64,000 bases of DNA from the NCBI RefSeq assembly GCF_030384885.1, contig NZ_CP128613.1; one strand, written 5' to 3'. A program made the translations under genes and the position numbers. The stretch is from Escherichia coli (GTDB taxonomy: Bacteria; Pseudomonadota; Gammaproteobacteria; Enterobacterales; Enterobacteriaceae). The notes under the pieces were generated by a model. It saw nothing but the letters and a program-made list of their open reading frames with translations. It was not told the DNA's origin and ran no database searches. Shown in pieces: positions 1,275-59,177 of the stretch (its first letter is position 1; every line of letters begins with the position of its first letter).

Positions 1275-1385
1275 GCCTGATACTGATCGCCTGATGCGAC
1301 GCTTACGCGTCTTATCAGGCCTACGAGCCGATGCCATTTTGTGTAGGCCGGATAAGGCGTTCACGCCGCATCCGGCATGTCGTAG
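1275..1385. repeat. REP/BIME palindromic cluster
   Basis: Inverted REP units (gcctgatgcgacgcttacgcgtcttatcaggcctac / gtaggccggataaggcgttcacgccgcatccggcatg) in the glpK-glpX intergenic region. Confidence 0.8.
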
Positions 1386-1483
1386 ACTCTGAAATCGTGC
1401 GGGGGCAACCCCCGCACACATCAATAATCCCGCCCTTCCCCTGTGCTACACTTCGCGCCATTCCTTACTGCTTAGAGTTTGCT

Positions 1484-2494
1484 ATGAGACGAGAACTTGC
1501 CATCGAATTTTCCCGCGTCACCGAATCTGCGGCGCTGGCTGGCTACAAATGGTTAGGACGCGGCGATAAAAACACCGCGGACGGCGCAGCGGTTAACGCC
1601 ATGCGCATTATGCTCAACCAGGTCAACATTGACGGTACCATCGTCATTGGTGAAGGTGAAATCGACGAAGCACCGATGCTCTACATTGGTGAAAAAGTCG
1701 GTACCGGTCGCGGTGATGCGGTAGATATTGCTGTTGATCCGATTGAAGGCACGCGCATGACGGCGATGGGCCAGGCTAACGCGCTGGCGGTGCTGGCAGT
1801 AGGCGATAAAGGCTGCTTCCTCAACGCGCCAGATATGTATATGGAGAAGCTGATCGTCGGACCGGGAGCCAAAGGCACCATTGATCTGAACCTGCCGCTG
1901 GCGGATAACCTGCGCAATGTTGCGGCGGCGCTCGGCAAACCGTTAAGCGAACTGACGGTAACGATTCTGGCGAAACCACGCCACGATGCCGTTATCGCAG
2001 AAATGCAGCAACTCGGCGTGCGCGTGTTTGCCATTCCGGATGGTGACGTTGCGGCCTCGATTCTCACCTGTATGCCAGACAGCGAAGTTGACGTGCTGTA
2101 TGGCATTGGTGGCGCGCCGGAAGGCGTGGTTTCTGCGGCGGTGATCCGCGCATTAGATGGCGACATGAATGGTCGTCTGCTGGCACGTCATGACGTCAAA
2201 GGCGACAACGAAGAAAATCGCCGCATTGGCGAGCAGGAGCTGGCGCGCTGCAAAGCGATGGGCATCGAAGCGGGTAAAGTGTTGCGTCTGGGCGATATGG
2301 CGCGCAGCGACAACGTCATCTTTTCTGCCACTGGCATCACCAAAGGTGATCTGCTGGAAGGTATTAGCCGCAAAGGCAATATCGCCACCACCGAAACACT
2401 GCTGATCCGCGGTAAATCACGCACCATTCGTCGCATTCAATCCATCCACTATCTGGATCGTAAAGACCCGGAAATGCAGGTGCACATTCTCTGA
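1484..2494 (+). CDS. glpX: fructose-1,6-bisphosphatase class II
   Basis: ORF 1331-2494; start moved to the ATG giving MRRELAIEFSRV (336 aa); upstream part of the ORF overlaps REP sequence. Confidence 0.92.
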   Translation: MRRELAIEFSRVTESAALAGYKWLGRGDKNTADGAAVNAMRIMLNQVNIDGTIVIGEGEIDEAPMLYIGEKVGTGRGDAVDIAVDPIEGTRMTAMGQANALAVLAVGDKGCFLNAPDMYMEKLIVGPGAKGTIDLNLPLADNLRNVAAALGKPLSELTVTILAKPRHDAVIAEMQQLGVRVFAIPDGDVAASILTCMPDSEVDVLYGIGGAPEGVVSAAVIRALDGDMNGRLLARHDVKGDNEENRRIGEQELARCKAMGIEAGKVLRLGDMARSDNVIFSATGITKGDLLEGISRKGNIATTETLLIRGKSRTIRRIQSIHYLDRKDPEMQVHIL

Positions 2495-2516
2495 GTGATT
2501 TGATCGATTGAGCCTT

Positions 2517-2544
2517 CCAGTCCTTCGGGACTGGAATTTTTTTG
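2517..2544 (+). terminator. rho-independent terminator after glpX
   Basis: GC hairpin ccagtccttcgggactgg followed by a T-run. Confidence 0.7.
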
Positions 2545-2590
2545 TTCGGAGAACGAAGATAAGGCAAGTCAATCAAAACAGGAGAAAAAC

Positions 2591-56889: not shown

Positions 56890-56929
56890 ATAATAAACAA
56901 CGCCCTGCGGGGCGTTATAAGGAGTGATT

Positions 56930-58333
56930 ATGTCTGACCATAATCCACTGACATTAAAACTGAATCTGCGGGAAAAAATCGCTTATGGCATGGGCGACGT
57001 CGGTTCGAATTTAATGCTTAGCATCGGCACTCTGTATCTCCTCAAATTTTATACCGATGAATTAGGGATGCCTGCTTACTATGGCGGGATTATCTTTCTG
57101 GTGGCGAAATTCTTTACCGCGTTTACCGATATGCTCACCGGATTTTTACTCGACTCGCGAAAAAATATTGGGCCTAAAGGCAAATTTCGTCCCTTTATTT
57201 TATATGCAGCGGTTCCGGCGGCGTTAATTGCAACGCTCCAGTTTATCGCCACCACTTTTAGTTTGCCGATTAAAACGACGATTGCCACCGCGCTGTTTAT
57301 GATGTTTGGACTTTCATACAGTCTGATGAACTGCTCGTATGGCGCGATGATCCCAGCAATTACCAAAAACCCCAATGAGCGCGCGCAGCTTGCGGCTTAC
57401 CGCCAGGGTGGTGCAACCATAGGGCTATTGATTTGTACCGTAGCATTTATTCCATTGCAGTCGCTTTTTTCTGACTCCACTGTCGGTTATGCCTGCGCGG
57501 CACTGATGTTCTCCATTGGTGGCTTTATTTTTATGATGCTGTGCTACAGAGGCGTCAAAGAGCATTATGTGGACACGACGCCAACCGGACATAAAGCCAG
57601 TATTCTCAAATCTTTTTGCGCGATATTTCGTAATCCGCCATTGCTGGTTTTATGCATTGCTAACCTGTGTACCCTGGCGGCATTTAATATCAAACTGGCA
57701 ATTCAGGTCTATTACACCCAGTATGTGCTGAATGATATTAATTTATTGTCGTGGATGGGATTCTTCAGTATGGGATGCATCCTCATCGGCGTATTGCTGG
57801 TGCCATTAACTGTAAAATGTTTTGGTAAAAAACAGGTTTATTTAGCTGGCATGGTGCTGTGGGCGGTGGGGGATATCCTGAATTATTTCTGGGGCAGTAA
57901 CTCTTTCACTTTCGTCATGTTCTCTTGTGTCGCCTTTTTTGGTACGGCCTTTGTAAACAGCCTGAACTGGGCGCTGGTACCGGATACCGTAGATTATGGT
58001 GAATGGAAAACAGGTATACGTGCCGAAGGTTCTATTTATACCGGTTATACCTTCTTTCGTAAAATTTCAGCCGCACTTGCTGGCTTCTTGCCAGGCATTA
58101 TGCTGACGCAAATCGGTTATGTTCCCAACATCGCGCAAAGCGATGCAACATTACAGGGTTTGCGTCAGCTCATTTTTATTTGGCCTTGTGCGCTGGCGAT
58201 AATTGCTGCATTGACGATGGGATTCTTTTACACGCTCAATGAAAAACGTTTTGCGATGATTATTGAGGAAGTTAACCAACGCAAAAATAAAGAGATGGCG
58301 ACAGAAGAAAAAACGGCTTCCTTAACGTTATAA
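56930..58333 (+). CDS. yihO: GPH-family sulfoquinovose transporter
   Basis: ORF 56924-58333; ATG start after RBS aaggag (467 aa); paralog of yihP. Confidence 0.9.
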   Translation: MSDHNPLTLKLNLREKIAYGMGDVGSNLMLSIGTLYLLKFYTDELGMPAYYGGIIFLVAKFFTAFTDMLTGFLLDSRKNIGPKGKFRPFILYAAVPAALIATLQFIATTFSLPIKTTIATALFMMFGLSYSLMNCSYGAMIPAITKNPNERAQLAAYRQGGATIGLLICTVAFIPLQSLFSDSTVGYACAALMFSIGGFIFMMLCYRGVKEHYVDTTPTGHKASILKSFCAIFRNPPLLVLCIANLCTLAAFNIKLAIQVYYTQYVLNDINLLSWMGFFSMGCILIGVLLVPLTVKCFGKKQVYLAGMVLWAVGDILNYFWGSNSFTFVMFSCVAFFGTAFVNSLNWALVPDTVDYGEWKTGIRAEGSIYTGYTFFRKISAALAGFLPGIMLTQIGYVPNIAQSDATLQGLRQLIFIWPCALAIIAALTMGFFYTLNEKRFAMIIEEVNQRKNKEMATEEKTASLTL

Positions 58334-58399
58334 ATGTCAATAGCCGCTATTTCCATCCTGGTGGGTGGCGGCCTCCCTACGTTTAAAAATGGACTTATT

Positions 58400-59092
58400 A
58401 TGAAAAAGATTAATGCAATAATTCTATTATCCTCTCTGACCTCTGCCTCGGTATTTGCTGGCGCATACGTCGAAAACAGGGAGGCATATAATCTCGCCTC
58501 CGATCAGGGCGAGGTTATGCTACGTGTGGGTTATAACTTCGATATGGGCGCGGGTATTATGTTAACCAATACCTACACCTTTCAGCGAGAAGATGAACTA
58601 AAACATGGCTACAATGAAATTGAAGGTTGGTATCCGTTATTCAAACCAACTGATAAATTAACCATCCAGCCCGGTGGCTTAATTAATGATAAAAGCACCG
58701 GTTCCGGTGGTGCAGTATATCTGGACGTCAACTATAAATTTGTACCATGGTTTAATCTGACAGTGCGAAATCGCTATAACCATAATAACTACAGTTCAAC
58801 AGATTTGAACGGGGAGCTGGATAATAATGACACCTATGAAATTGGTACCTACTGGAATTTTAAAATCACCGAGAAATTCTCCTATACATTTGAGCCACAT
58901 TATTTTATACGCGTAAATGACTTTAATAGCAGCAATGGAAAAGATCATCATTGGGAAATCACTAATACCTTCCGTTACCGTATTAACGAAAACTGGCTCC
59001 CTTATTTCGAATTACGCTGGTTAGATCGTAATATAGAACCATACCACCGCGAGCAAAACCAGATTCGTATCGGGACGAAGTATTTCTTCTGA
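58400..59092 (+). CDS. ompL: outer membrane porin L
   Basis: ORF 58334-59092; start at MKKINAIILLSSLTSASVFA (230 aa) with signal peptide; C-terminal ...GTKYFF. Confidence 0.9.
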   Translation: MKKINAIILLSSLTSASVFAGAYVENREAYNLASDQGEVMLRVGYNFDMGAGIMLTNTYTFQREDELKHGYNEIEGWYPLFKPTDKLTIQPGGLINDKSTGSGGAVYLDVNYKFVPWFNLTVRNRYNHNNYSSTDLNGELDNNDTYEIGTYWNFKITEKFSYTFEPHYFIRVNDFNSSNGKDHHWEITNTFRYRINENWLPYFELRWLDRNIEPYHREQNQIRIGTKYFF

Positions 59093-59100
59093 TGTGAAAC

Positions 59101-59177
59101 TGCCGGATGCGGCGTAAACGCCTTATCCGGCCTACGGTTGATACGGTTTTCATTGGCCGGATTAAACACATCCGGCC
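59101..59177. repeat. REP element plus adjacent hairpin
   Basis: gccggatgcggcgtaaacgccttatccggcctac and ggccggattaaacacatccggcc between ompL and yihN. Confidence 0.75.

Follow-up and report, generated by a model that had tools for sequence, protein, structure and literature searches.

Sequences of the repetitive extragenic palindromic (REP) type in Escherichia coli are 29–37 nt long, consist of a head and a tail whose pairing leaves one mismatch in the stem, end in a CTAC/GTAG foot, and occupy extragenic positions in high copy number. Their types y, z1 and z2, as well as the bacterial interspersed mosaic elements (BIMEs) of types BIME-1 and BIME-2, are named after the Bachellier nomenclature as summarised by Ton-Hoang et al. 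2012 (PMC3333891). Here, we analyse the REP and BIME clusters in a 64,000-nucleotide stretch of an E. coli chromosome (contig NZ_CP128613.1; hereafter, the window), which runs from glpK to typA, covers the 88-minute region of K-12 in the orientation opposite to MG1655, and is identical in sequence to positions 3334606–3398605 of the E. coli 2013C-4282 chromosome (NZ_CP027579.1). A first-pass annotation of the window had listed REP clusters at seven places, several of them beside points of difference from K-12, and had suggested that they may have taken part in the rearrangements. Our analysis indicates that the seven sites are very probably ordinary members of the E. coli REP/BIME family, and the REPs bystanders to the gene-content differences from K-12. 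The REP sites are polymorphic in their own right between strains.

The family features named above are all shared by the units of the window, which show no substantive difference from it; the unit at 8383–8416 is decayed, and that at 24460–24493 carries paired substitutions in its arms. A comparison by eye, without an alignment, also finds them similar to the three reference REPs given in PMC11208160. With BIME-1, the sbp/pfkA and fdhE/yiiF sites share an inverted y and z1 around a 35-nt linker, a single copy per site and a match to the Rfam family ES036. Whereas the known BIME-1 L linker carries a site for integration host factor (IHF), the linkers of the window hold an IHF-like motif recognised by eye, and about one in three E. 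coli genomes lacks the fdhE/yiiF copy. With BIME-2 of the REP325/naRNA4 type, cpxA/yiiM shares a y and a z2 unit placed head to head over 13 nt, together with a match to naRNA4; glpK/glpX shares a z2 and a y unit, tail to tail over 18 nt, and rhaA/rhaD is a locus with nine alternating y/z2 units in K-12. The known type is tandemly iterated, whereas the loci of the window hold at most one pair each, and rhaA/rhaD is down to a single y.

Two further systems act on such repeats. Binding and cleavage by the REP-associated transposase TnpA(REP) require inverted pairs, a conserved GTAG foot and the stem mismatch (PMC3333891), and the window shares inverted REP pairs, the foot and the mismatch with the REP doublet/REP-associated tyrosine transposase (REPIN/RAYT) systems. 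It differs from these systems in that no tnpA(REP) gene is among the annotated genes of the 64-kb window, and in that the filled and empty alleles at three of its sites differ in their flanking bases too. The insertion sequences (ISs) IS1397 (IS3 family) and IS621 (IS110 family) occupy, in other strains, REPs at two sites orthologous to those of the window, and four intact copies of ATCAGGCCTAC, the natural target of the IS621 bridge-RNA recombinase (PMC11208160), are present in the z1 and z2 units of the window.

Eleven REP units at seven intergenic sites

REP units were called with a joint detector that requires, on one strand, the head GCCKGATGCG (at most two mismatches) and the tail CTTATCMGGCCTAC (at most three), spaced to give 27–40 nt overall and with at most four mismatches in total over the 24 positions scored. 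An explicit mismatch scanner was used; fuzzy regular expressions miss three degenerate units. Types were assigned according to the definitions in PMC3333891. In the 64-kb window, this consensus scan returned 11 units, all within the seven sites and none outside them; 200 first-order shuffles of the window averaged 0.02 units and never exceeded one. Scanned singly over the same sequence, the tail motif gave 15 matches (5.65 expected) and the head motif 24 (7.87 expected). Eight units show 0–1 mismatches over the scored positions and the remaining three show 3–4; within lengths of 29–37 nt, the head reads GCC(G/T)GATGCG and the tail CTTATC(C/A)GGCCTAC. All 11 are covered by the three known unit types, arranged as two BIME-1 elements, two BIME-2-type y + z2 pairs and three single y units (Table 1). 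Every cluster listed by the first-pass annotation therefore does contain REP units, and its coordinates were right to within a few bases. Two edges of the listed ranges are no full REPs, namely a hairpin at 59154–59178 (right part of the last range) that does not follow the consensus and a partial inverted repeat at about 1255–1281 (left edge of the first range).

The placing of these clusters in backbone intergenic regions was likewise correct, as all 11 units lie outside annotated coding sequence, in the 11.2% of the window that is noncoding by annotation. Every site adjoins the 3' end of one or more genes: four separate convergent genes, two separate co-directional genes, and one is inside the rhaBAD operon. 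The sequences recur at high copy number, with cluster-bearing queries matching a median of at least 32–39 places per genome across 5,425 genomes. The CTAC end is present in every unit. For 10 of the 11, the predicted fold is the canonical imperfect hairpin, in which the stem has a single internal mismatch and the CTAC tail stays unpaired; folding energies are −13 to −22 kcal/mol and z scores −2.5 to −6.0. In the variant unit at 24460–24493, GTCGGAT...ATCCGAC, both arms of the stem are altered and their pairing is preserved. The inverted repeat at 1255–1281, which is missing from the K-12-type and AVS0533-type glpK/glpX alleles, represents a partial remnant of a REP at that cluster's left edge and holds no full unit. 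The hairpin at 59154–59178 gave no match to the REP consensus with the joint detector.

Table 1. REP units, linkers and accompanying hairpins at the seven sites of the window
Site	Feature	Position	Strand	Details
S1 glpK/glpX	BIME-2-type pair			z2 + y, tail to tail, 18-nt linker
S1	REP-stem-like inverted repeat (ATCAGGCA ... TGCCTGAT)	1255–1281		just 3' of the glpK stop; read from sequence
S1	z2 REP (GCCTGATGCGACGCTTACGCGTCTTATCAGGCCTAC)	1289–1324	+	0 mismatches in head and tail; −21.7 kcal/mol, z −5.5
S1	y REP	1343–1376	−	z −4.6; K-12 counterpart is a degenerate y remnant only
S2 sbp/pfkA	BIME-1	8383–8480		y, 35-nt linker, z1
S2	decayed y REP	8383–8416	+	4 mismatches; hairpin not significant, z −0.6
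S2	BIME-1 L linker, 35 nt	8417–8451		contains TTCAATAAATTG, IHF-site-like by eye only
S2	z1 REP	8452–8480	−	z −3.5; contains the natural IS621 target ATCAGGCCTAC
S3 cpxA/yiiM (convergent)	BIME-2 unit	13461–13544		y + z2, head to head, 13-nt linker
S3	y REP	13461–13494	−	z −5.3
S3	z2 REP	13508–13544	+	z −5.8
S4 rhaA/rhaD (inside rhaBAD operon)	single y REP	22334–22367	+	
S5 frvR'/yiiG (convergent)	variant single y REP	24460–24493	−	3 mismatches; −22.2 kcal/mol, z −6.0
S6 fdhE/yiiF (convergent)	BIME-1	36980–37077		z1, 35-nt linker, y
S6	z1 REP	36980–37008	+	z −3.4
S6	BIME-1 L linker, 35 nt	37009–37043		IHF-like motif TTCAACATATTG by eye only
S6	y REP	37044–37077	−	one tail mismatch; z −3.3
S7 ompL/yihN (convergent)	single y REP	59102–59135	+	z −4.0
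S7	separate hairpin (TGGCCGGAT / ATCCGGCCA)	59154–59178	+	9-bp stem, 7-nt loop, REP-like arms; −15.7 kcal/mol, z −5.8

Gene-content differences from K-12 lie away from the REPs

Block alignment of the window with K-12 gave seven structural differences, for which the K-12 REPs were called with the same joint detector; curated REP features were not found in the K-12 RefSeq feature tables returned. Three of the seven lie inside REP sites and alter nothing except REP content. At glpK/glpX, the window carries z2 + y in a spacer of 230 bp, versus a degenerate y remnant in 134 bp in K-12 (a difference of 96 bp); at rhaA/rhaD, one unit in 82 bp stands against nine alternating y/z2 units in 450 bp (368 bp); and at frvR/yiiG, a y REP in a spacer of 101 bp takes the place of a 21-bp perfect palindrome in 49 bp (52 bp). 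The ompL/yihN spacer measures 90 bp in both genomes.

The other four differences change gene content. They comprise a 4.15-kb deletion that fuses frvA' to 'frvR (junction 24134–24152; nearest REP at 308 bp), a 4.5-kb insertion of two genes between yiiG and fdhD (25737–30242; nearest REP at 1.2 kb), the replacement of 193 bp of K-12 by 4.97 kb between yiiE and fabY (37991–42956; nearest REP at 914 bp), and a TauE/SafE gene between yihR and yihQ (52369–53358; nearest REP at 5.7 kb). None of the eight breakpoints of these four differences comes closer to a REP than 308 bp in either genome, and the distances extend beyond 5 kb. No REP sequence was found at the junctions 24134–24152, 25736/30243, 37991/42956 and 52369/53358, and the joint detector found no REP of K-12 in or beside the segments matching the four gene-content differences. 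The fdhE/yiiF BIME is colinear with K-12, in an alignment that is unbroken from 30243 to 37991, with the nearest breakpoint 914 bp away. The differences that do map to REPs are thus the REP-content changes at glpK/glpX, rhaA/rhaD and frvR'/yiiG; the junction of the frv remnant is 308 bp off, and fdhE/yiiF, named in the earlier remark, is no point of difference from K-12. The proposal that REPs took part in the rearrangements is contradicted by the multi-genome comparison described below, where every gene-content breakpoint maps away from REPs. This negative outcome is useful, in that REPs should not be credited with the gene-content differences of this chromosomal stretch.

The frv junction itself points to another route. 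It falls at an imperfect 12-bp match, GCGA(T/A)GGCGAAG, between frvA and the C-terminal portion of frvR, and this microhomology lies within the coding sequence of both genes. The frvA'::'frvR remnants (23873–24421) comprise 91 codons each, in frame and split by a TAA at 24146–24148. We take both stretches at the junction, from annotation and family, to code for EIIA domains of the phosphotransferase system. Among 5,426 complete genomes, the junction occurs in one (2013C-4282), and the other matches listed all break at window position 24134; since it is unique to one strain, the deletion is private and unrelated to REPs. As a specific alternative explanation, the sequence suggests that frvA and frvR recombined through their paralogous EIIA-coding stretches.

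A separate and widespread frv deletion is carried by KE47, SC418, SCU-108 and R12; it begins 17 bp upstream of frvA and reaches the final 19 bp of yiiG. Its right end is about 50 bp from the frvR/yiiG REP site, and a link with that REP was considered and rejected: the deletion removed the spacer, and the join is free of REP sequence. Between rhaM and frvA, a 1.4-kb carbohydrate porin gene is present in F3398, EC42405, AVS0533, KE47 and others and is missing from both the window (23560–23872) and K-12.

REP sites vary among strains

Variation at the sites was followed in 14 genomes, namely the window, K-12 and 12 genomes spread over the identity ranking, with REP architecture tabulated between fixed anchors. 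All REPs fell into the same seven orthologous spacers, except for one K-12 unit beyond the window end, and apart from these seven sites no REP flanks any variable gene block in the 14 genomes. At least four alleles of the glpK/glpX site exist, carrying z2 + y, a lone z2, a degenerate y, or a z2 interrupted by IS1397. At rhaA/rhaD, 12 genomes hold one, three, five or nine units in steps of about 92 bp, the window representing the minimal allele and K-12 that with nine. The cpxA/yiiM site is mostly conserved, R12 having an extra z1 unit. The frvR/yiiG REP is confined, in this table, to the window strain and AVS0533, and the fdhE/yiiF BIME is present in five of 12 genomes, absent from five, and absent together with yiiF from two. 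At the population level, genomes were counted when they covered at least 80% of an allele-spanning query, out of 5,426. The full glpK/glpX allele was found in 447 of these and the fdhE/yiiF BIME allele in 3,426 (about 63%), and the frvR/yiiG REP allele is rare, at 52 genomes (about 1%).

One observation at cpxA/yiiM stands apart from these states. In SC418 (13367–13621; window 13450–13554), an unrelated GC-rich repeat some 230 bp long, which has CCCTCTCCC/GGGTGAGGG motifs, takes the place of the BIME.

The first-pass annotation had also remarked that REPs can host IS insertions, and this is borne out in other strains at two of the same sites. Z1323HEC0477 carries IS1397 in the loop of the glpK/glpX z2 REP, with a 4-bp TTGC duplication, and AH01 carries IS621 in the foot of the sbp/pfkA z1 REP, at the natural target ATCAGGCCTAC. 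No IS is present in any REP of the window.

IS621 was also seen away from a REP. In Eco_70239, it interrupts sodA at GTAGGTCTGAT, which matches the target ATCAGGCCTAC at 10 of 11 positions; this sodA site (window 16139–16149) is a coding-sequence mimic of the REP foot and is intact in the window.

The presence and absence of units at glpK/glpX, frvR/yiiG and fdhE/yiiF raises the question of whether units were recently gained or lost through the REP-associated transposase. We regard this as unlikely. At these sites, the bases beside the repeats also differ between filled and empty alleles, which are therefore not the clean insertions that would demonstrate recent transposition. If transposase-driven gains or losses did occur, these sites would offer natural filled/empty pairs from which to read the in vivo mechanism of REP/BIME spread, which is still poorly defined.

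Interpretation and alternative explanations

We interpret the seven sites as ordinary family members. By analogy with the functions described in PMC3333891, transcribed units would form stable imperfect hairpins that may shield the mRNA upstream against 3' exonucleases or act as transcription attenuators; as DNA, the BIME-1 linkers would serve as IHF sites and the BIME-2 units as gyrase sites, and the units would be substrates of the REP-associated Y1 transposase TnpA(REP). They may further act as targets of the REP-specific elements IS1397 and IS621. The sites do change locally: y/z2 units of about 92 bp are gained or lost at rhaA/rhaD, glpK/glpX, frvR/yiiG and fdhE/yiiF have units in some strains and lack them in others, and ISs have inserted in a targeted manner in other strains. 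The gene-content differences very probably arose by other routes, such as the joining of frv paralogues, the insertion of an island after a terminator hairpin and the yiiE–fabY replacement. REP/BIME elements, their copy-number variation and their targeting by IS1397 and IS621 are all long established, and what we find is known biology.

Several points weigh against this interpretation. Three of the seven structural differences do fall in REP sites, and REPs are therefore over-represented among small indels. The frvR'/yiiG REP, 308 bp from the frv junction, may have had an indirect effect, for instance through replication stalling at its hairpin followed by slippage nearby. Full alignments cover 14 genomes only. 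Finally, the unit at 8383–8416 has lost the ability to form its hairpin; its orthologue is intact in K-12 and most other strains.

A first alternative is that REP/BIME clusters, as recombination substrates or IS landing pads, produced the differences from K-12, such as those at the frv remnant and in the fdhE/yiiF neighbourhood. Join-points of REP-mediated duplications have been described in the older literature. The REP sites of this region are demonstrably unstable, with IS1397 and IS621 inserted into them in other strains, and a REP lies in the spacer adjoining the frv remnant. We nevertheless consider this origin very unlikely, given that all eight gene-content breakpoints keep their distance from REPs, that the frv junction lies in coding sequence at an imperfect microhomology between paralogous EIIA domains, that K-12 has no REP in or beside frvABXR, that fdhE/yiiF is colinear with K-12, and that the REPs of the window hold no IS; the independent frv deletion of KE47, SC418, SCU-108 and R12 also removes the spacer and leaves no REP at its join.

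The remaining alternatives concern what the clusters are. They could be primarily small-RNA genes, the cpxA/yiiM pair being a naRNA4-like HU-binding nucleoid RNA and the BIME-1 linkers ES036-type small RNAs, and Rfam does give matches at gathering level: naRNA4 on the y/z2 pair at 13464–13541 (82.7 bits; gathering score 59.5), and ES036 on the linkers at 8418–8459 (48.2 bits; gathering score 37.6) and, on the minus strand, at 37001–37043 (45.8 bits). However, these matches all fall on repeat sequence, the one y/z2 pair and the two BIME-1 linkers, and therefore restate membership of the repeat family, not expression or function of these particular copies. The oppositely oriented y/z2 pair at glpK/glpX is unmatched in Rfam; a primary small-RNA identity is in our view improbable. 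That the hairpins are instead intrinsic terminators or chance GC-rich palindromes belonging to no repeat family would suit their stable stems and their position at gene 3' ends. We give this reading practically no weight, as 24 conserved positions including the CTAC tail recur in 11 units against 0.02 by chance, the units lack T-runs, and the sequences come back dozens of times per genome. An assignment to the ordinary REP/BIME family, with the REPs as bystanders to the gene-content changes, is the reading that we retain.

Other gene-content events in the region

The two-gene island between yiiG and fdhD (approximately 25737–30242; genes at 25789–29932, minus strand) is absent from K-12 and present also in AVS0533. 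It encodes a 611-aa GHKL/HSP90-like ATPase (Pfam HATPase_c_3, HSP90) and a 768-aa TPR-containing protein, for which PADLOC returned weak TmtA matches only, none of them convincing; the island could be an uncharacterised defence or stress module. It lies just past a terminator hairpin at 25688–25728. Direct repeats or REPs bounding the island were not found, the sole resemblance being a short AT-rich similarity beside the terminator hairpin.

EC42405 and SCU-108 have lost yiiF together with the adjacent BIME, and we considered whether the BIME was used in this event. This was rejected: the missing segment corresponds to 36861–37460, and its two ends are 120 and 383 bp away from the BIME. At the join, ATCTCTCGTATT is kept, and the ends of the loss may lie in repeated sequence beside the paralogous genes yiiE and yiiF.

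The yiiE–fabY segment (37991–42956) is made up differently in nearly all genomes sampled. In the window, it contains small hypothetical genes, a nadS toxin–antitoxin-like pair and an alpha/beta hydrolase, as well as a 304-aa protein annotated as a transposase and a 296-aa partial open reading frame; no Pfam match was found for either of the last two. The TauE/SafE sulfite-exporter gene (52439–53314) belongs to the sulfoquinovose cluster, and its K-12 counterpart is 146 bp of unrelated sequence.

Two further observations come from elsewhere in the window. About 15% of complete genomes are non-colinear with the window in the fieF/cpxP spacer (at about 10707), where the window represents the empty site; in both non-colinear genomes examined, Z1323HEC0477 and AH01, the end of a P2-like prophage (ogrK, tail genes) abuts fieF. 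As expected for its selenocysteine codon, the formate dehydrogenase alpha-subunit gene contains a SECIS_3 element at 31856–31914 (84 bits).

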